A stretch of 64,000 bases of DNA from a phage (PZ402301.1), one strand, 5' to 3'. Positions 15,062 to 40,460 are shown, numbered from the stretch's first letter. The notes: generated from the sequence alone by a model not told the origin. Translations and numbers: made by a program.

Positions 15062-15451
15062 TTAATCCAAAATATTATTAGGCATTGGTTGAACACTCGC
15101 AAGTTCTTTAAAGAACTCAGTAGAGTCAGGTAATTTAACCATTTCCGGAGCATGCTTACTAAATTTATGTTTGCAATGACGGCATTTATATTCAAGTTCC
15201 GGTTTACGCCAGTTAATCAATTGAACCTGTTCAGTACCGCATTCAGGACAATTAGGAACGTTTTTAGAAGCCCTTTCGCGACGTTCAACCATAGCCATAA
15301 TAGCATCCCAGGCTGGAGGTTTAAAATCTAAATCGTCACAACCATGAATCTTTCCACGCATTTCTAAATCGTCTTCTTCACCAGCCATAATAATTTTAAT
15401 TAGACTGGAATTACTTGAAGCTGCAATATCTTCTAATAGACGCTTTTTCAT
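15062..15451 (-). CDS. hypothetical protein with zinc-ribbon-like CPEC...CRHC motif (129 aa)
   Basis: Cys pairs NCPECGTEQ and CRHCKHKF. Confidence 0.45.
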
Positions 15452-16377
15452 TTCAGTACCTCAATAGCATTACGTAAACCATTTGCTTTTGCATTAAGAG
15501 CTTTTAACAATTTAGTGTGTTCGGCAATTTGGGCTTCAACTTCAATCAAACGAGCATTGAGATATTCGCGTTCTTCGCTCAAGCTATCAACCTTTTCTAC
15601 TTTAGGTTCTTTTACAACTGGCTTATATGTATTAGGGTTCTTCAGTTTAATTAGAATACGTGAACTGTATAACATTGAACCATTATTTTCGATTTCGTCA
15701 TACATTTCTACTACGTCCATGATTTTTAACATCATGCGGAGTTTATAAGATAACGAACGAATAGTTTTGTTGTGCTTATTAATTTCTCTAGCTGTCATGG
15801 TGCCGAGATTACGTGAGTAATAATAAGGAACCTGGATATTAATTAATACTGATGAACCACCTGGCTTGTGTGTTACTTCATCAGCAATAACCCAGTCCTT
15901 AACATGAACTGTATTTGTACGGTCATCGCCCGCGGTAAATAGTTTACGAGCATGCTTAAAAAGCATATTCACTTGGTCATTGAATTGACAAGCAAATTTA
16001 TCAGCAAATTTAGTTTCAGGAATGGTAGATAACCAATCAGCCAAATGGGTCTTTTTAACATCGTTAACAATAGTAAATTCAACTAAATCGGTTATAGATG
16101 TCGTAGATTTAATGAAGCTCGGCTTCATAAAGTTTTCAATGTTATCACGAGCTACAGTAGAAGATAACATACGAGAACGTTTAAACCATTCAAGCAAATT
16201 GCCTAACGAATAAGAATAAGCGTTTTGAGTATCTTTACAGATATGATTTTCCTGGCCAACATATTGAAGGAAATCACGAAGAATATTATTGATTACTGCT
16301 CTGTGTCCGATCTGATAATTACGGTGTTTAGTAATAAGACTGTCAAAATAATCAATATAATGTTTACGAGTTTTCAT
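15448..16377 (-). CDS. paralogous family member 1 (309 aa), C-terminal coiled coil
   Basis: shares architecture and C-terminal heptad-rich tail with the next three ORFs. Confidence 0.55.
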   Translation of the reverse strand: MKTRKHYIDYFDSLITKHRNYQIGHRAVINNILRDFLQYVGQENHICKDTQNAYSYSLGNLLEWFKRSRMLSSTVARDNIENFMKPSFIKSTTSITDLVEFTIVNDVKKTHLADWLSTIPETKFADKFACQFNDQVNMLFKHARKLFTAGDDRTNTVHVKDWVIADEVTHKPGGSSVLINIQVPYYYSRNLGTMTAREINKHNKTIRSLSYKLRMMLKIMDVVEMYDEIENNGSMLYSSRILIKLKNPNTYKPVVKEPKVEKVDSLSEEREYLNARLIEVEAQIAEHTKLLKALNAKANGLRNAIEVLK

Positions 16378-16429: not shown

Positions 16430-17431
16430 TTACTTAATTAACTGTAAAGCTTGTTCAAGACGATCCAGGCGATTAACAGATTCTTCCCAAATCCTTTTAG
16501 CCTGCTCATATTCTTTCTGCGCTTTATTAGAAATTTCTAGAACTTCTTTATAAGTCTTTTCTAGTGCAATAACTTCTGGACGAATTTCTACAGGTTCAGG
16601 CGAATCATCAAGATTATCCATTAGTTCCTCAAGTGTAATTTCTTCTTTAGGAGTATTCACAATTTCATCACATTTTTGTTGGTAAATTTCTTTATCAGTC
16701 GGTGAGTATGCACATTTCACTTCACGAAGACTAACTACAATTTTATATCCTTCCCAACCGCATATATTCTTAAAAGGATACGTATGAATATTTTCTACTG
16801 TTTCCATACAAAGTAATGCGGTTTCTAATTGACGAGTTATAGTGCTAGCAATTGAGAAAAATTTATTAATGTTCTTTTGGTTAGTTTCTGGTGTAAAAAA
16901 TCCATAATTCACAAAAATAGATACTTTATTTTTATCAAGTTCATATTCTTTTATGATAATCATATCAGAAGCCAAAGGATGAATTTGACGATAATTGCCA
17001 TAACATAATTTAGAAGCTGATTTTAGAATTTGCTTTTTGAAAAGTCTGAAATTACTAATCCAACGACGAGTAAAAATATTCTCAGGGTCTTCTTTATTAT
17101 TAAGATGATAAGAATTAACATCACCGAACCAATTATATCCTACTACATCTTTGGTTCGTTTAATTTCTTTCCCAAAATTACCAAGAATATCCCGATTAAC
17201 CAAATATGAAAGAAGACGAGAACCTTTAAAGGTTTTCTTAATGTCATCTTTATCCGTACGACTAGAAATTTCACGAACTTCGTGAATAAATTTGCTGGAA
17301 GAAACAATGCTTACATCAATATTATTGAGCCATCGATTGATAATGGAAATAACGATATTCTGACTAGTCATAGGTTTAACTTTATCATCAATAACGCTAT
17401 TGAATGATTTGATATATTCGTTACGAGTCAT
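16430..17431 (-). CDS. paralogous family member 2 (about 333 aa from internal Met), C-terminal coiled coil
   Basis: start chosen downstream of early promoter at 17461..17489. Confidence 0.55.
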   Translation of the reverse strand: MTRNEYIKSFNSVIDDKVKPMTSQNIVISIINRWLNNIDVSIVSSSKFIHEVREISSRTDKDDIKKTFKGSRLLSYLVNRDILGNFGKEIKRTKDVVGYNWFGDVNSYHLNNKEDPENIFTRRWISNFRLFKKQILKSASKLCYGNYRQIHPLASDMIIIKEYELDKNKVSIFVNYGFFTPETNQKNINKFFSIASTITRQLETALLCMETVENIHTYPFKNICGWEGYKIVVSLREVKCAYSPTDKEIYQQKCDEIVNTPKEEITLEELMDNLDDSPEPVEIRPEVIALEKTYKEVLEISNKAQKEYEQAKRIWEESVNRLDRLEQALQLIK

Positions 17432-17460
17432 ATTAATCTCCTCAGTAGAAAGTAAGAACA

Positions 17461-17489
17461 TTATACCACATCCTTGTGGCAAAGTAAAC
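17461..17489 (-). promoter_or_regulatory. T4-type early promoter
   Basis: minus-sense GTTTAC -35, spacer with palindrome CCACA-TCCT-TGTGG, -10 GTATAA. Confidence 0.45.
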
Positions 17490-20878: not shown

Positions 20879-21859
20879 TTATTTCAGAAGAGTAACCTCA
20901 GCAATTTCTTCCCAACCGTTTTTGTCGGTCATAATAAAGTCAGCAAGATAAAGAGCAGTACGCAGTGAAACATTGCGTAAACGGTTAACATTAACTTTCA
21001 TCCATGATAATGCTTTATAAGTTTCTTCATCAGAAAGACCACGCTTTTGCATCATGTCAGTTGAAAGAATAACATCTTCAACCCTGACCATAATTTCTTC
21101 ATTAGTGTGAACACCCAAATCCAAATAAACCGAGCGGGACACTAATGCTTGTAAATGTGGAGCAAGTTTAGTACCACGGTCTAATTCGCGGTCAATGTCA
21201 ACGTTTGTGATAAAAACAATCGTTCCTTTAAATTCAAACTCACGGTCAATGCCTTTTTCTTCTAAGTAAGAAGATGCAGTGCTCCAGCAGACTTTACGGG
21301 TCTCTCCGGTGTCCAGAGCGGCTTTTAGAAGATTAAGAATGTCCATATCAGAGAAAACATCCACATCATCAATCAAAAGGACAGAATTCTCTTCACGATT
21401 ATTCCAAAGCTGTTCATAAAGACCAATACCAGAGATTTTACCATTAATGCTTTTATATTCAATGTATCCAATATCATTTGCTTTATTTAAAGCTTTATCT
21501 AAAGAATACGTTTTACCAATACCTGCTGCGCCAGAGATAATCAATGAACGAATATTTCCGTTAATAATACCATTCGTCATCATTCCCATAACATTAAATC
21601 TTTTATTAATGCGGGTTTTCATATCTTCATACGATTCTTTAACTTCTTCAACTTTTACACCATCATATGAAATATCTGATTTGTAAACCCAAACACCGCG
21701 ACGTTTACCGTCAATTTCAACAAAAACTTTACCATCTCCTTGTGCATCTACCGGAGCATTATCTGGGAACCATTCGCCTAAGAGCTCAAAAGTTCCAGAG
21801 ATTTCTTTACCGAAGTAGATACCCTTATTGATAGTTACAGTTTTCATTTTATTCTCCAA
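20879..21859 (-). CDS. AAA+/P-loop ATPase (326 aa)
   Basis: Walker A GAAGIGKT and Walker B LLIDDVD read in the translation. Confidence 0.6.
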   Translation of the reverse strand: MENKMKTVTINKGIYFGKEISGTFELLGEWFPDNAPVDAQGDGKVFVEIDGKRRGVWVYKSDISYDGVKVEEVKESYEDMKTRINKRFNVMGMMTNGIINGNIRSLIISGAAGIGKTYSLDKALNKANDIGYIEYKSINGKISGIGLYEQLWNNREENSVLLIDDVDVFSDMDILNLLKAALDTGETRKVCWSTASSYLEEKGIDREFEFKGTIVFITNVDIDRELDRGTKLAPHLQALVSRSVYLDLGVHTNEEIMVRVEDVILSTDMMQKRGLSDEETYKALSWMKVNVNRLRNVSLRTALYLADFIMTDKNGWEEIAEVTLLK

Positions 21860-21880: not shown

Positions 21881-21911
21881 TATAGTACCATAAAGCTTTA
21901 TGCCTGTAAAC
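21881..21911 (-). promoter_or_regulatory. T4-type early promoter with conserved leader
   Basis: minus-sense GTTTAC -35 ... TACTAT -10 ... ACAACTATCAACTGATA. Confidence 0.5.
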
Positions 21912-21941
21912 CGTTTTGTGAAAAAATTTTAAAATAAAAAA

Positions 21942-21960
21942 GGGAGCCCGAAGGCTCCCT
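21942..21960 (-). terminator. terminator hairpin GGGAGCC-CGAA-GGCTCCC
   Basis: perfect GC stem with tetraloop immediately after stop of 21962..22975. Confidence 0.6.
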
Positions 21961-21961
21961 A

Positions 21962-22975
21962 TCATTTATAATAACTTCGATGGTTTTCAAGATAAACCCT
22001 CTCAAGGAAGTCATCCCAGAAACCCATGTCTACTTTTTGCTGCATACCGTTCTTAGAAGCTTCAATAGATGCTGCTTCTACTTGATCGACCACATCTTCC
22101 AAAAACTCTTGAACAGTTTTAAATGGATGCTTACCCAGCTTCACGTCGAGAATAAATGGAGCGTCTTGAAGTGGATAAACTAAGTCACCGGTTTTGTAAA
22201 TTTCCAATAGTTGGAGTCCACCACGACAAGCATGACTCAGAGCTTTCCAGTCAATACCCTCATTCGCTTCAGCTTTACGAGCACGTTCACCATATTCAGC
22301 ATCAAGTTTATTCAAAGACTGCTTAAGCTCAATAAGAGAAAGTGTAGTCTGATATTTACGACCCAACACAGTGTAAAACGTTTGTGGGCCTGTTTTCTCA
22401 TGATTATGGAATACCCATTCGCAGAACTCGTTTTCTGGAAGACGATGCTTAATATCTTCAACTTTAGTGCGACGAAGTCTATCAGGGATTCCTTCTTGAT
22501 AGTCGACCCACTGGTCAGGGATTTGATTAACTACTTTCAATACATCACGCAATGCGGCCAAACGAGAACCCTTGACACCATATTTAGAAGCTTGCTTGCG
22601 GACATATCCTAAATAAGATTTCATGTTAGTTGTATAAAAACGAGAACGATTGTCTTGAATAAACTTCCATACATCAGGCAAATCAGATTTAACTACCAGT
22701 TCAGGTGGAGTGTGAAGCATATCCAATGCTACAGTTTCACCATCTGCTGCTAATTTAAAGAAATACTTAAGACTGTATAGTTCATGGTCAATATCATCTT
22801 TAGTGTTTTTAGATGATGTGTTGTTAGTGTTTTTGCTCATATGCTCTTTAACATTTCCAATAAGAATATCACGAGCAGGAGGAACAAAGATTTCTTTAAA
22901 ATCTACATCAGATTCTGGAGTAGAAGTTCCATAAAGATGACTACCAAAATAGCTTTTCATTACTGTTTTCATCAT
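21962..22975 (-). CDS. nucleotidyltransferase-fold protein (pol-beta-type NTase signature), 337 aa
   Basis: N-terminal motif G11-S12-x3-G16-x5-S22-D23-V-D25 plus downstream VALDML acidic residue. Confidence 0.5.
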   Translation of the reverse strand: MMKTVMKSYFGSHLYGTSTPESDVDFKEIFVPPARDILIGNVKEHMSKNTNNTSSKNTKDDIDHELYSLKYFFKLAADGETVALDMLHTPPELVVKSDLPDVWKFIQDNRSRFYTTNMKSYLGYVRKQASKYGVKGSRLAALRDVLKVVNQIPDQWVDYQEGIPDRLRRTKVEDIKHRLPENEFCEWVFHNHEKTGPQTFYTVLGRKYQTTLSLIELKQSLNKLDAEYGERARKAEANEGIDWKALSHACRGGLQLLEIYKTGDLVYPLQDAPFILDVKLGKHPFKTVQEFLEDVVDQVEAASIEASKNGMQQKVDMGFWDDFLERVYLENHRSYYK

Positions 22976-23433
22976 TCAGCCTTATATTCAATAACAGGAC
23001 ATACTTTAGCTTTACGCGTTTTTAAAAATTCGACGATAATAGATTTCTTTGGTTGAATAGGAGGTAAACCTTTATACGCCCTATCAATATTTTCTACATG
23101 TAAAGAGTAATCCTTTTTCCATTTATAATCTTTATATTTTTCATGCAGTTGTGCGGGAATAACAAATGAACCGATAATAAGTAAAACAAGCAAAATAGCA
23201 AGTATAAATGCTGATGGAATAAGAGTCCATAAACTACCAAAAATAAGCCATTTCTGTATGATTTCTGCACAGATGATAGTTAGACCTGCGAGTATAGTAC
23301 ATCCGAAAAAAGAAACGAAAAATGTAGGAATAACAATAGACCAAAAATACGCGCATAGTGTCTTAGGTCGTTTCCATTCATCATTAAACATTTTGAATAA
23401 TTTATAGTGCCAAGAGCTTTCATTAATAATCAT
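22972..23433 (-). CDS. membrane protein (153 aa, multiple TM helices)
   Basis: hydrophobic stretches throughout. Confidence 0.5.
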   Translation of the reverse strand: MIINESSWHYKLFKMFNDEWKRPKTLCAYFWSIVIPTFFVSFFGCTILAGLTIICAEIIQKWLIFGSLWTLIPSAFILAILLVLLIIGSFVIPAQLHEKYKDYKWKKDYSLHVENIDRAYKGLPPIQPKKSIIVEFLKTRKAKVCPVIEYKAE

Positions 23434-23435
23434 AA

Positions 23436-23957
23436 TTATCCTTTCATTGAAGGTGTAACAGTTGTTAAATACTTAATCATAGCTTCAGCTTCTGATTTTG
23501 ATAATGAAATTTCTCCATTGTTTTGACGAATAGAAATAAAATCCGGATGACGGTCACCACCAGCTTTCAAAACACACATATAAGTATCAGTTTCATCTTC
23601 AATATTTGAAATGATTGAAGCAGTTCCACATGAATGTGGTTTTTGATAAATCAATGCAGCTTTTCTTCCACCGTTTGACTGTTCATAAACTTTTAATACA
23701 TCAAACAAATCACTTCTTTTATCAATAGCTAAGATGTTGTTTTCATCTTCAATGTTAAATCCTTCGGATACTTCATAAAGTGTCACCCATAAATCACCTA
23801 TATCGATAGTAGCATTTTCCTTTCCATGACTTTCAAGAGCATGACAAATTTTCTTGATTTCATCATAACTCATTTTAATAATATCATCTCCTTGAATAAG
23901 AAAGATGTCATTTTTAAATTCAACACGAATTAAACCACTTTCACTTGAAATAAACAT
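23436..23957 (-). CDS. hypothetical protein (173 aa), paralogue of next ORF
   Basis: shared C-terminal motif EA-A--KYL--V-P-M with 23964..24521. Confidence 0.5.
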   Translation of the reverse strand: MFISSESGLIRVEFKNDIFLIQGDDIIKMSYDEIKKICHALESHGKENATIDIGDLWVTLYEVSEGFNIEDENNILAIDKRSDLFDVLKVYEQSNGGRKAALIYQKPHSCGTASIISNIEDETDTYMCVLKAGGDRHPDFISIRQNNGEISLSKSEAEAMIKYLTTVTPSMKG

Positions 23958-23963
23958 ATTTCC

Positions 23964-24521
23964 TCACTTTGAAATCATAGTTGGAATGACAGAATCAAGA
24001 TAAGTCTTTAGCGCAATAGCTTCGTCTTTGGTAAATGTGACAATATGTGATCGAAAATCATCAATTTGACGAATAGTTAAGACATCTCCCTCTTCATAAC
24101 ATTTTGATACATTTAAAAGAGTTTCATCATTCTGATTGCAATCGTTAGTAATAATAGCATTGCAATTTTTGAGCCATTTTAAACTATGTTTTCTTTCATT
24201 AGAATAATAAAAATATTTAATCTTAGCTATAAAACTATCCCAATGAATAACTGATAAACACATTGACTCACTTTTAATATTAAATCCTGGACATGAAGAA
24301 TAAAAATGAATTTTGTGCTCATCATTGATGCTTACTATTTTATCAGTATAAGGATATTCAATTTGGGTTAAATGAATGATTTCACTAGGCGTAAAATACA
24401 GCATATCGTCTTCTTGCGTCAAACGATACATGCTATTTACTTTTTCTATAGCCAATTCACCAAAAAGCGGACTAACTTCTAATACTAATCGTTTCATATT
24501 GATTCTCTTCGACTCACTCAC
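23964..24521 (-). CDS. hypothetical protein (185 aa), paralogue of previous ORF
   Basis: shared C-terminal motif. Confidence 0.5.
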   Translation of the reverse strand: MSESKRINMKRLVLEVSPLFGELAIEKVNSMYRLTQEDDMLYFTPSEIIHLTQIEYPYTDKIVSINDEHKIHFYSSCPGFNIKSESMCLSVIHWDSFIAKIKYFYYSNERKHSLKWLKNCNAIITNDCNQNDETLLNVSKCYEEGDVLTIRQIDDFRSHIVTFTKDEAIALKTYLDSVIPTMISK

Positions 24522-37916: not shown

Positions 37917-38228
37917 AAGCCTTGCGGCAACCTTGTCGGGGTTCCACCTGCTAAGGCAAGTGTTTGTACGAAACGCCGGGATTCGAACCCGGTTATTAAG
38001 CAGTTGACGCTACTCAATATTTTTTAAAAGGCCATATCTCGACCATATCCGAACGTTCCGTCAAAAACGCTACTCGGCTTACGGCAAAGATATTTCCTCG
38101 AATCGATAATTCTGTGCGCCGTTTCTGCTGTGATGTAAGGGGATATTAACAAATCGTAAAGATTTATTAAGACCAGTCCTTACGCAGGGAACATCAGTCC
38201 GACGACTTACCGGTAGCGACCCGGTTTC
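37917..38228 (-). ncRNA. candidate structured stable RNA region with tRNA-like T-arm (possible rnaC/rnaD-type species)
   Basis: about 310 nt without ORF next to tRNA cluster; minus-sense CCGGGTTCGAATCCCGG T-arm-like hairpin near 37974..37990; no complete tRNA cloverleaf found by eye. Confidence 0.25.
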
Positions 38229-38579
38229 TTAGTATTCTTTTAAAGCATCAACCTGTTCACGACGTTTACGCCATAAATCAATTACTTCATGCACAGATTC
38301 AGCATTTCGAATTGGACGGCATTTATATAAAGACTTATGATTTTGATATTGTGTAGATAACGGAATTTTATCTAAAAGGTCTTTACGTTCAAAATATTCG
38401 TAACCATCTAAACCAAATGAACGATTTTTGAGAAATTGCCAATGACCATATTCGTTTTCGACATAAACATAATCTGCATGCTGATAAAGTAAATTAATTA
38501 CACGTTCAGAAATAACAGTGTCATTATGATTAAAATAGAATGTTAAATCATGAACTACTAAATAAACATTACCTTTCAT
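38229..38579 (-). CDS. hypothetical protein (116 aa)
   Basis: ORF directly downstream of tRNA-Arg. Confidence 0.5.
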   Translation of the reverse strand: MKGNVYLVVHDLTFYFNHNDTVISERVINLLYQHADYVYVENEYGHWQFLKNRSFGLDGYEYFERKDLLDKIPLSTQYQNHKSLYKCRPIRNAESVHEVIDLWRKRREQVDALKEY

Positions 38580-38597
38580 ATTTTCCTCACTTATAAT

Positions 38598-38673
38598 TGG
38601 TCGAGGCAGTAGGGATCGAACCTACGACCTAGGACTTAGAAGGTCCTTGCTCTTCCTTCTGAGCTATGCCTCG
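38598..38673 (-). tRNA. tRNA-Arg (anticodon UCU)
   Basis: cloverleaf: acceptor CGAGGCA/TGCCTCG, anticodon loop CTTCTAA, T-arm GTAGG-TTCGATC-CCTAC, encoded CCA. Confidence 0.85.
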
Positions 38674-38677
38674 GATT

Positions 38678-38752
38678 TGGCGGACATGCATGGATTCGAA
38701 CCATGGACCAATTGATTAACAGTCAACTGCTCTACCACTGAGCTACACATCC
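38678..38752 (-). tRNA. tRNA-Asn (anticodon GUU)
   Basis: cloverleaf with D-arm GCTC-AGTGGTA-GAGC, anticodon loop CTGTTAA, T-loop TTCGAAT, encoded CCA. Confidence 0.7.
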
Positions 38753-38756
38753 AAAT

Positions 38757-38843
38757 TGGTGGGGAGTGATGGAGTCGAACCACCCGAGTCGCAATGACAA
38801 TGGATTTACAGTCCACACCGCTACCTCTACGGGATAACTCCCC
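38757..38843 (-). tRNA. tRNA-Tyr (anticodon GUA), long variable arm
   Basis: anticodon stem-loop TGGA-CTGTAAA-TCCA, long variable arm, T-loop TTCGACT, encoded CCA. Confidence 0.7.
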
Positions 38844-38856
38844 TTAATTCTTAATT

Positions 38857-38931
38857 TGGTGGCCCTGGGTGGAATTGAACCACCATCTGGCGATTATGAG
38901 TCGCTTGCTTGAACCTTCCAGCTACAGGGCC
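38857..38931 (-). tRNA. tRNA with CAU anticodon (Ile-lysidine type or Met)
   Basis: acceptor GGCCCTG/CAGGGCC, anticodon loop CTCATAA, T-arm GGTGG-TTCAATT-CCACC, encoded CCA. Confidence 0.75.
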
Positions 38932-38939
38932 AAATTTTC

Positions 38940-39425
38940 TTATTTTATGTAATATTTATTTAAAAACTTTCTAGCTTGAGTATGGCTAACATTTATAGCG
39001 TTTGCATAATTTTTAATAAAACCTCGTTCATCCATATTAAAATTTTCTAATATTTTTAATCGTCTAGTTATCTCATCTTGACTTAAGGTACTTGCATTAT
39101 TTTTAGAAATTTTTTCTAAGGACTGCGCCGAGTGTTTTCGACCATTAAAATTAAAATTTTTAGATTTTGGAGGAAATCTAGCATTTAGTCTCGCATCTTT
39201 TGTATTTTGATTATTAGTTGCGCAATATATGTTATTTAATGAATATGGTCCTTTATCGCCGAAACGGCACATGCAATATTCATGACCCTTTCTTCCACGC
39301 TTATCATAATTTCCCGTTGATTTCCACCAATGCAGCCATTCATCAAAAGTTAAATTCCATTCAATGTTTCTACGTATAGCAGAATTCCGCTGAGAAATAT
39401 ATTTTGCATAATCTTCTTTCATCAC
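38940..39425 (-). CDS. putative HNH-type homing endonuclease (161 aa) inserted in tRNA cluster
   Basis: His/Asn-rich core GHEYCMCRFGDKGPYSLNNIYCATNNQN; C-terminal SHTQA helix motif shared with the neighbouring GIY-YIG enzyme. Confidence 0.45.
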   Translation of the reverse strand: MMKEDYAKYISQRNSAIRRNIEWNLTFDEWLHWWKSTGNYDKRGRKGHEYCMCRFGDKGPYSLNNIYCATNNQNTKDARLNARFPPKSKNFNFNGRKHSAQSLEKISKNNASTLSQDEITRRLKILENFNMDERGFIKNYANAINVSHTQARKFLNKYYIK

Positions 39426-39469
39426 AAATTTCTCTACTTATTCAATACACTGAGCTAAATCAGCAAAAC

Positions 39470-39559
39470 TGGCGGAGGCGATAGGATTTGAACCTATGAG
39501 TCGCCGGAGCGACTGCCGGTTTTCAAGACCGGTGCATTAAACCACTCTGCCACGCCTCC
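39470..39559 (-). tRNA. tRNA-Ser (anticodon UGA), long variable arm
   Basis: acceptor GGAGGCG/CGCCTCC, anticodon loop CTTGAAA, long variable arm, T-loop TTCAAAT, encoded CCA. Confidence 0.85.
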
Positions 39560-39565
39560 AAATAT

Positions 39566-40216
39566 TTATATACTGTTAATTTGATTTAGAATTCTTTTTG
39601 CTTGAGTATGACTTACTCCAATATGCTTAGCATATTTATATAATTCACCACGCTTAGAAAAATCATATAATTTAGAAATTTCTATTCTTCTTTTTCTTTC
39701 ATCCGCAGAAACTTTTGCTTCGTTTGCTTTTGCTATTTTACGTTTAGCTTCTTGAGAATGAGTTTTACCAGCAAAGCCATTCTTCATTAATCCATTTGAA
39801 GACCATCCTTTTAATTTTCCATTAGAATGAGCCTTTTTAACACCCAATGAAATTAATTCGCGTTGCTGATCTGTCATAGGATAATTATTTATATGGTCCC
39901 ATCCACCTTCACCGCCAAGTTTTAAATTATACACATCTGGTCTATTTAAAAACTCTTCTGTGACAATATTTTTCTCGGCTTCAAGCATAGATTCTTTATC
40001 ATCAAAATACTCTAATATTTCTTTAGAGAAATTTTCTATACCATACTTGTCTTGGGCTCTTTTTAATAATTTACCAGAACCCATATATCCATCATCTAAA
40101 TTTTCGGTAGAATGCACACCAATATAAATTTTATTATTAATTTTATTTGTTATTTTATAAAGATAAAAATGCATATCAGTCCCTAATAAAGAACTGAGCG
40201 TCTCACGACGAGTCAT
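39566..40216 (-). CDS. segB: GIY-YIG homing endonuclease (SegB-like, 216 aa) in tRNA cluster
   Basis: GIY-YIG motif FYLYKITNKINNKIYIGV near N-terminus; located between tRNA subclusters as T4 segB. Confidence 0.75.
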   Translation of the reverse strand: MTRRETLSSLLGTDMHFYLYKITNKINNKIYIGVHSTENLDDGYMGSGKLLKRAQDKYGIENFSKEILEYFDDKESMLEAEKNIVTEEFLNRPDVYNLKLGGEGGWDHINNYPMTDQQRELISLGVKKAHSNGKLKGWSSNGLMKNGFAGKTHSQEAKRKIAKANEAKVSADERKRRIEISKLYDFSKRGELYKYAKHIGVSHTQAKRILNQINSI

Positions 40217-40220
40217 AAAT

Positions 40221-40294
<74 letters not shown>

Positions 40295-40299
40295 AAATT

Positions 40300-40386
40300 T
40301 GGTGCGAGAAGTGGGACTCGAACCCACAAGGAAATCATTCCGCAGCATTTTAAGTGCTGTGCCTTTACCAATTTGACCATTCTCGC
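40300..40386 (-). tRNA. tRNA-Leu (anticodon UAA), long variable arm
   Basis: anticodon loop CTTAAAA, long variable arm, T-arm GGGTTCGAGTCCC, encoded CCA. Confidence 0.85.
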
Positions 40387-40388
40387 GC

Positions 40389-40460
40389 TGGGAATAAAGG
40401 ACTTGAACCTTTGCATCTAGCAGTCAAAGTGCTATGCCTTACCAACTTGGCTAATTCCCA
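40389..40460 (-). tRNA. tRNA-Gln (anticodon UUG), 3-prime CCA apparently not encoded
   Basis: acceptor TGGGAAT/ATTCCCA, anticodon loop CTTTGAC, T-loop TTCAAGT; abuts tRNA-Leu. Confidence 0.8.

Follow-up and report, generated by a model that had tools for sequence, protein, structure and literature searches.

A long RlaP-family nucleotidyltransferase, NrdC.11, in a T4-like phage and its proposed place in tRNA repair

A 64,000-nucleotide stretch of DNA (the window) from the T4-like phage (Tequatrovirus) PZ402301.1 was analyzed here with respect to one gene, nrdC.11, and its product. Judged by its sequence, the product is almost certainly the orthologue of T4 NrdC.11 and a member of the RlaP family. 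By analogy with characterized relatives, counter-defense through RNA-end repair is the best reading of its function. NrdC.11 would restore nucleotides lost from nuclease-damaged tRNA ahead of sealing by Pnkp (PseT) and Rnl1 (RnlA), a role that we consider reasonably probable at the level of the pathway and less so in its details. NrdC.11 was already known as an RlaP from the literature, and on this point the present analysis is a confirmation and not a discovery. The gene is located as follows.

21962-22975, minus strand: nrdC.11 coding sequence, 337 amino acids, with the stop codon TGA at 21962-21964

RESULTS AND DISCUSSION

NrdC.11 belongs to the RlaP family

The protein is identical to T4 NrdC.11 (NP_049709.1, "nucleotidyltransferase" in RefSeq) at 323 of 336 residues (96%) and shares 100% identity with NrdC.11 of phage ime09. 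Pfam PF10127 (RlaP, RNA repair pathway DNA polymerase beta family) matched residues 7-136 at 43.8 bits (gathering score, 23; E = 3.3e-11) and was also matched by 91 of 92 diverse NrdC.11 homologues. PHROG 388 ("nucleotidyltransferase") was matched with E = 2.5e-136. Searches of NrdC.11 against NCBIfam and, at E <= 0.01, against PADLOC returned no match. The DNA of 21962-22975 matched 755 phage records, the best at 97.9% identity. By tblastn, NrdC.11 was found in 1518 phage records, the range extending from T-even phages to Sinorhizobium phage phiM12 at 28% identity, and an exhaustive HMMER scan yielded 3426 clusters (50% identity) at E <= 1e-3.

As reported previously, T4NrdC.11 was explicitly put in the RlaP family, in cluster 5 of a sequence similarity network, as a protein "of unknown function" (Carruthers, Fatma & Huang, bioRxiv, December 2025, PMC12776372). 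An earlier note, made from the DNA alone, had not recognized the product as a characterized T4 protein. This holds insofar as the preprint, too, lists the T4 protein as one "of unknown function," but the protein already had its T4 name, its RefSeq and Pfam assignments and its place among the RlaPs in the literature.

Many GenBank and UniRef entries name homologues of NrdC.11 and NrdC.10 "thioredoxin," and one NrdC.11 homologue is named "HNH homing endonuclease." Such labels look like annotation carry-over from the neighboring nrdC and mobD genes.

The catalytic residues are conserved

Three short elements of the N-terminal region bear on catalysis.

22901-22945, minus strand: GS-x3-G-x5-SDVD motif (G11 S12 ... 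D23 x D25), a nucleoside triphosphate (NTP)- and metal-binding signature, from translation, conservation and hhalign
22787-22789, minus strand: D63, the putative third catalytic Asp; invariant, at the start of predicted strand 62-68 and aligned with D84 of canonical RlaPs
22715-22732, minus strand: VALDML, residues 82-87, in which D85 is a fourth conserved acidic position

Residues 11-25 read GSHLYGTSTPESDVD, which fits GS-x3-G-x5-SDVD, the Pol-beta-type nucleotidyltransferase (NTase) signature that the earlier note had placed there. Conservation was assessed in 92 diverse homologues, 34 to 55% identical to the query. G11, S12, S22, D23, D25, N57, D63, Y132, K244, H248, R251 and P268 were invariant, and D61, D85 and D242 were conserved in at least 90%; exactly three Asp residues (D23, D25 and D63) were invariant. 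Because its residues are invariant in homologues of such low identity, the signature is not a chance match. The conservation of GS...DxD, on which the earlier note had made its reading depend, was also found in a wider set, with G11, S12, S22, D23 and D25 near-invariant in 146 cluster representatives. The signature residues were essentially kept in 73 bacterial and archaeal orthologues, among which S12 was replaced by Ala in 17.

Three strictly conserved Asp residues have been reported in RlaP (PMC12776372). In a profile-profile comparison (hhalign) of NrdC.11 with 15 canonical short RlaPs from bacterial loci, residues 4-93 were aligned with a probability of 63.5% and E = 6.8e-5. GS was paired with GS, and D23 and D25 with D51 and D53; the partners of D63 and D85 were two invariant residues, D84 (of LDxNGWD) and the Glu E106, respectively. 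The catalytic set of RlaP (GS, DxD and a third Asp) is present in NrdC.11. D63 is taken as the likely third catalytic carboxylate because it is invariant, stands at the start of strand 62-68 and pairs with D84. The earlier note had offered VALDML as the candidate for the downstream acidic triad position. The hexapeptide is indeed present, but the third invariant Asp is D63; D85, 96% conserved, lies in a predicted helix (81-86) and is probably a fourth conserved acidic residue and not the triad Asp.

The predicted fold is that of a nucleotidyltransferase with a long-type insert

Four regions were delimited in the protein.

22622-22975, minus strand: N-terminal Pol-beta NTase domain, about residues 1-118 (PF10127 match 7-136, model strands, hhalign 4-93)
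22805-22837, minus strand: low-complexity Ser/Asn/Thr/Lys-rich loop, about residues 47-57 (SKNTNNTSSKN), between strands 3 and 4
22337-22558, minus strand: beta-rich insert, about residues 140-213, specific to NrdC.11-type "long" RlaPs
21965-22336, minus strand: C-terminal helical domain, residues 214-337, with a DWKAxSHAxR motif at 22223-22252

An AlphaFold2 model built on 88 sequences had a mean predicted local distance difference test (pLDDT) score of 88.9 and a predicted template modeling score of 0.76. From the N terminus, the model runs through strand 3-10, the GS residues, a short helix, strand 24-31 (from D23/D25), strand 45-49, the low-complexity loop and strand 62-68 (from D63). Helices, the beta-rich insert (about 150-210, at lower confidence) and a five-helix C-terminal region follow. 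The insert, which is poorly conserved, has model strands at 155-157, 167-169, 185-192, 196-203 and 206-209, with lower pLDDT at 131-170. The C-terminal part consists of a helical domain (214-308) and a terminal helix (317-336); the C-terminal halves of NrdC.11 and canonical RlaP were not aligned by hhalign. The crystal structure of PfRlaP has an N-terminal NTase domain, a C-terminal helical domain and a final helix packed back on the NTase domain (PMC12776372).

The SKNTNNTSSKN loop has a pLDDT of 76 for residues 51-60. It is without a counterpart in canonical RlaP (an 8-residue gap in hhalign), ends in the invariant N57 and leads into D61 and D63.

Searches of the PDB with the protein sequence, the full profile and a profile of the N-terminal domain gave no meaningful match for NrdC.11. 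Foldseek matches to the PDB were all weak (E >= 7.6e-3, TM about 0.26), with NTases making up most of the higher-ranked ones, and the top structural neighbors of the model in the fold searches were minimal, ANT-type NTases. Among predicted viral structures (BFVD), the NrdC.11 fold is common in phage "nucleotidyltransferases." The NTase fold proposed in the earlier note is borne out by Pfam, by the NTase core of the model and by the fold searches, and the structure prediction and Foldseek run suggested there did not refute it.

The structural relatives in BFVD also included baculovirus HE65 proteins and several giant-virus nucleotidyltransferases. As far as such models can tell, RlaP-like enzymes may occur in eukaryotic viruses too.

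NrdC.11 is proposed to act in tRNA repair before sealing

The chemistry of the family has been described for the RlaPs of Pseudomonas fluorescens and Pseudomonas aeruginosa (PMC12776372). Among Escherichia coli macromolecules, only RNA was labeled by these enzymes; they do not act on DNA or protein, and E. coli proteins stayed unlabeled. One to two nucleoside monophosphates (NMPs) are added to RNA 3'-OH ends with little base preference, dATP is also accepted, and Mn2+ or Co2+ is preferred. The 5' half of a cleaved-tRNA mimic is the preferred substrate, with the anticodon-break end (Asp-34) favored over the acceptor-end strand (Asp-42), and rRNA-, tRNA- and fragment-sized products were labeled in total RNA. 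RlaP partly restored the aminoacylation of tRNA missing one anticodon-loop nucleotide. The authors proposed that RlaP is an antidote to "smart" ribotoxins, such as RloC, that excise a nucleotide after the cut, and the 3'-OH product suits 5'-phosphate ligases better than RtcB (PMC12776372). In jumbo phages, the distribution of RlaPs mirrors that of RNA ligases (Iyer et al. 2021).

By homology to the Pseudomonas enzymes, a four-step course of repair can be proposed. A host anticodon nuclease would cut a tRNA and trim a nucleotide, as when RloC excises the wobble base, and phage Pnkp would take off the 2',3'-cyclic phosphate or 3'-phosphate. NrdC.11, with two metal ions held by D23, D25 and D63, would then add one to two NMPs untemplated to the RNA 3'-OH. 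Finally, Rnl1 (or Rnl2), a 3'-OH/5'-P ligase, would reseal a full-length anticodon loop.

The gene neighborhoods of cellular relatives were examined in a sample of one genome per prokaryotic species, in which 156 relatives were found and the best 80 loci (32 to 54% identical) were kept; neighbors were clustered and the recurrent ones identified by Pfam. An RNA-repair gene was found within about 6 kb of the NrdC.11-like gene, mostly on the same strand, in 20 of the 80 loci (RtcB in 11, the kinase-phosphatase-ligase Pnkp in 9, Hen1 in 7, Ro/TROVE in 5, T4-type PseT-like in 3 and Rnl1-like in 1). The phiM12 homologue sits between Rnl2-like and Rnl1-like ligase genes.

Two loci are described for their gene order. 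On a 4-kb contig binned to a Bathyarchaeota metagenome-assembled genome (L010, 62-3803), an NrdC.11-like RlaP, an NT5C-like nucleotidase, a T4-type Pnkp with kinase and HAD phosphatase parts, a 143-aa open reading frame (ORF) and an Rnl1-family ligase follow one another on one strand; going by the predicted products, this block is a whole T4-type tRNA repair set. A phage-like metagenomic contig of 285 kb (L003, 8001-9481) carries an RlaP homologue and, 20 bp behind it, the gene of a 173-aa calcineurin-like metallophosphoesterase; bacterial Pnkp has an end-healing domain of this kind.

In phages, the records containing each protein were counted by genus.

NrdC.11: Escherichia 609, Klebsiella 286, Shigella 83, Aeromonas 75, Acinetobacter 69, Enterobacter 56
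RnlA: Escherichia 637, Klebsiella 287, Shigella 83, Aeromonas 77, Acinetobacter 69, Enterobacter 56
PseT: Escherichia 636, Klebsiella 286, Shigella 83, Aeromonas 77, Acinetobacter 70, Enterobacter 56
NrdC.10: Escherichia 558, Klebsiella 149, Shigella 76, Aeromonas 48, Acinetobacter 72, Enterobacter 36

The by-genus counts of NrdC.11 track those of RnlA and PseT, unlike those of its physical neighbor NrdC.10, which is suggestive.

Several points weigh against a role in tRNA repair. The characterized RlaPs belong to another cluster, and the activity of the NrdC.11 type is a prediction. Only the N-terminal 90 residues or so align with canonical RlaPs (the hhalign match at 63.5% and E = 6.8e-5), and a beta-rich insert and C-terminal motifs are peculiar to the NrdC.11 clade. 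The little NTP selectivity of RlaPs would make faithful restoration of a wobble base inefficient, as the authors admit (PMC12776372). In T4-like genomes, nrdC.11 is not adjacent to pseT or rnlA, the genes being dispersed; just 5 of the 78 viral loci examined had a repair gene closer than 10 kb, and 46 of the 80 cellular loci had neither a repair gene nor a paired RlaP. The agreement among NrdC.11, RnlA and PseT is one of record counts by genus and not of genome-by-genome occurrence. In addition, the tandem arrangement of long and short RlaPs in 23 of the 80 cellular loci, described below, implies that the two paralogues are not functionally identical. This distinction lowers confidence in the detailed mechanism, not in the pathway.

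T4 Pnkp and Rnl1 are the founding example of RNA repair as phage counter-defense, and RloC-type nucleases are thought to defeat them by removing a nucleotide. The idea of restoring the nucleotide is already in the literature (Carruthers et al. 2025; Burroughs & Aravind 2016, as cited elsewhere). If the proposal is true, NrdC.11 is a third, overlooked component of the classical Pnkp/Rnl1 pathway, and how phages answer "smart" anticodon nucleases becomes testable.

Alternative activities

The enzyme could instead tail or repair RNA 3' ends in general, with no special link to breaks in the anticodon loop, and might, for example, rebuild damaged or missing CCA ends or tail mRNA or tRNA fragments. 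This seems rather unlikely. Such an enzyme would agree with the chemistry of the family, in which any RNA 3'-OH can be extended and products of rRNA, tRNA and fragment size were labeled in total RNA, but RlaP favors the anticodon break (Asp-34) over the acceptor end (Asp-42) and has no CCA specificity (PMC12776372). Within the window, tRNA-Gln (40387-40460) directly adjoins tRNA-Leu, and of its CCA just the first C is encoded, as the earlier note had correctly seen in stating that a full CCA is lacking there; the other seven tRNAs of the window encode CCA. In T4, tRNAs encoded without CCA need the host cca enzyme to mature. NrdC.11 has no Pfam or NCBIfam match to CCA-adding families (PolyA_pol head, PF01743), and in Aeromonas phage AS-sw the genes of the NrdC.11 homologue and of a distinct tRNA nucleotidyltransferase lie about 4 kb apart. 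The repair of tRNA 3' (CCA) ends suggested in the earlier note is thus unlikely for a family that adds any base and prefers the anticodon-loop break.

A second possibility, to which we likewise give a low probability, arises from the tandem loci. NrdC.11 would then be a diverged paralogue that normally works with a canonical RlaP, in a complex or in sequential steps, and that was co-opted in T4 for an RNA-modifying reaction unpredicted by the Pseudomonas enzymes. Immediately after the NrdC.11-type gene, and on its strand, 23 of the 80 cellular loci have the gene of a canonical short RlaP of about 250 to 290 aa, with a full-length PF10127 match of 220 to 250 bits; among the 70 loci whose sequence extends far enough downstream, the figure is 21. 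Both members of the pair keep the catalytic residues. The paired loci are as follows.

L058 (8001-9811); L082 (3109-4892); L011, L013, L021, L029, L031, L033, L036, L037, L041, L043
L049, L061, L063, L067, L072-L076, L078, L083

No such pair was found in 78 viral loci. Phages carry one RlaP type or the other; canonical RlaP was present in 80 phage records, mostly of Pseudomonas jumbo phages and none named Escherichia. From sequence comparison, the NrdC.11 type is a distinct, longer paralogue of canonical RlaP that aligns with it in the N-terminal domain only, and it may differ in exact activity from the Pseudomonas enzymes. However, 9 of the 23 paired loci also have RtcB, Pnkp/Hen1 or Ro nearby, which keeps the pathway within RNA repair, and the long form must be capable of working by itself in T4-like phages, where its short counterpart is missing. 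The pairing was not mentioned in the limited part of the RlaP literature that was consulted, and it offers a small new lead on the division of labor in the family.

It is very improbable that NrdC.11 is a HalB-like, template-independent oligo(deoxy)nucleotide synthase, possibly Tyr-primed via the invariant Y132, whose product would be a decoy keeping nucleic-acid-gated effectors shut; in a milder reading, suggested by the tandem pairs in cells, long RlaPs would be a functionally distinct partner of canonical RlaPs in an undescribed RNA-repair step. A broader version is likewise very improbable, namely, a synthase or decoy of nucleotide or oligonucleotide signals in counter-defense, either CD-NTase/OAS-like or making HalB-like oligo-dA that keeps a Hailong-type channel closed. 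HalB-like synthesis is suggested only by fold similarity at 14% identity, and, with no RlaP structure in the PDB set searched, HalB was probably no more than the nearest minimal NTase of known structure. All Foldseek matches to the PDB were as weak as noted above, and the top structural neighbors are not of the cGAS/OAS kind but the ANT-type enzymes. No PADLOC or other defense-model match and no SMODS or other supporting Pfam match was found, and the neighborhoods point to RNA repair, not to signaling effectors. Of the options raised in the earlier note, RNA-end repair and counter-defense come closest to the evidence, whereas CD-NTase/OAS signaling, with signal mimicry or a decoy, found no such support.

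Finally, NrdC.11 is extremely unlikely to transfer nucleotides to a small molecule or a protein, whether in the manner of aminoglycoside/lincosamide ANT enzymes or as an MNT-type antitoxin with a HEPN protein as its target (the toxin-antidote idea of the earlier note), given that Pseudomonas RlaPs left E. coli proteins unlabeled (PMC12776372), that NTP_transf_2 scored 13.9 bits against a cutoff of 21, that no HEPN gene is adjacent (upstream is a membrane protein, after nrdC.11 a terminator and beyond it a P-loop ATPase), that no conserved Rx4-6H motif was found, the conserved residues running K244-x3-H248-x2-R251, and that the protein has 337 aa, against about 100 to 150 aa for MNT proteins.

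The gene closes a leftward transcription unit

The 337-aa product proposed in the earlier note was confirmed by the ORF list and translation as the reading of an uninterrupted ORF from the first ATG, on the minus strand; the plus-strand reading of 21962-22975 is broken by many stops. There are two adjacent ATG codons, and T4 RefSeq and most homologues begin at the second, which gives 336 aa. As in T4, the gene is flanked by nrdC.10 and the mobD/rI block. Upstream, a 153-aa membrane-protein ORF ends within the sequence ATGA, whose ATG is the first start codon of nrdC.11, an arrangement pointing to translational coupling.

22972-23433, minus strand: upstream 153-aa predicted membrane protein, PHROG 944
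21941-21960, minus strand: intrinsic-terminator-like hairpin and T-run, directly after the nrdC.11 stop (consensus scan)
20879-21859, minus strand: NrdC.10, a 326-aa P-loop ATPase with sub-threshold AAA and nSTAND Pfam matches, found in 1312 phage records

The hairpin has an 8-bp stem with 6 GC pairs and a TTCG loop, followed by TTTTTTATTTT. After it, and before nrdC.10, lies a sigma-70-like site, TTTACA-17-TACTAT (21882-21910). Because the hairpin and T-run directly follow the stop codon, nrdC.11 is predicted to be the last gene of a leftward transcription unit. T4 mutants deleted for the nrdC.11-mobD.3 segment were viable in a genome-reduction study, so the segment is dispensable on the laboratory host and nrdC.11 is an accessory gene.

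The mobD gene is absent from this phage; in T4, this homing endonuclease gene overlaps the nrdC.11 start. NrdC.10 was considered as a partner of NrdC.11 and rejected. A terminator and a promoter-like site stand between the two genes, their phage distributions differ, and NrdC.10 lay no more than 10 kb away in just 34 of the 78 viral loci and was absent beside all 80 cellular homologues.

Other features of the window

A tRNA cluster and two sets of adjacent paralogous genes were recorded elsewhere in the window.

37966-40460, minus strand: tRNA cluster with 8 tRNAs by ARAGORN and Rfam (Gln, Leu, Gly, Ser, Met, Tyr, Asn, Arg)
37966-38061: 96-nt "tRNA-???" of ARAGORN, not confirmed by Rfam
23436-23957 and 23964-24521, minus strand: adjacent paralogous genes, both matching phrog_1502
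15448-16377 and 16430-17482, minus strand: adjacent paralogous genes, both matching phrog_1435

With Asn, Tyr and Met present in the window, the tRNA set presumably differs from that of T4.

Comparison with known systems

Hailong HalB (PDB 9dbh/9dbj) is a tetrameric, Tyr-primed protein of 217 aa that makes oligo-dA as a defense signal. NrdC.11 shares 14% identity with it, is without a HalA partner and stands in an RNA-repair context, features that set it apart from HalB. Class II CCA-adding enzymes and poly(A) polymerases (PF01743) share with NrdC.11 the Pol-beta superfamily and the template-independent addition to RNA 3' ends that is predicted for it; however, NrdC.11 is without a match to their Pfam family, and both kinds of enzyme coexist in Aeromonas phage AS-sw.

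T4 NrdC.11 is an orthologue of the same length, whose gene likewise follows the mobD/rI block and precedes nrdC.10. The two phages differ at the start of the gene, which mobD overlaps in T4 and to which the 153-aa membrane-protein ORF is coupled in the window.

The Pseudomonas RlaPs (PF10127 cluster 1a) have in common with NrdC.11 the Pfam family, the GS/DxD/third-Asp set, and RtcB and 5'-P ligase systems as genomic partners, and the order of NTase domain, helical domain and terminal helix in the NrdC.11 model may correspond to theirs. NrdC.11, in cluster 5, differs in being about 70 to 80 residues longer, with the beta-rich insert and the low-complexity loop, and in its unaligned C-terminal half, and the long and short types occur in tandem in cells.

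The T4 Pnkp/Rnl1 repair that counters PrrC is the pathway to which NrdC.11 is proposed to belong. Although nrdC.11 is unlinked to the genes of that pathway in T4 and its membership is a proposal, the by-genus counts are near-identical, the genes stand together in the Bathyarchaeota contig, and the predicted 3'-OH product fits Rnl1.

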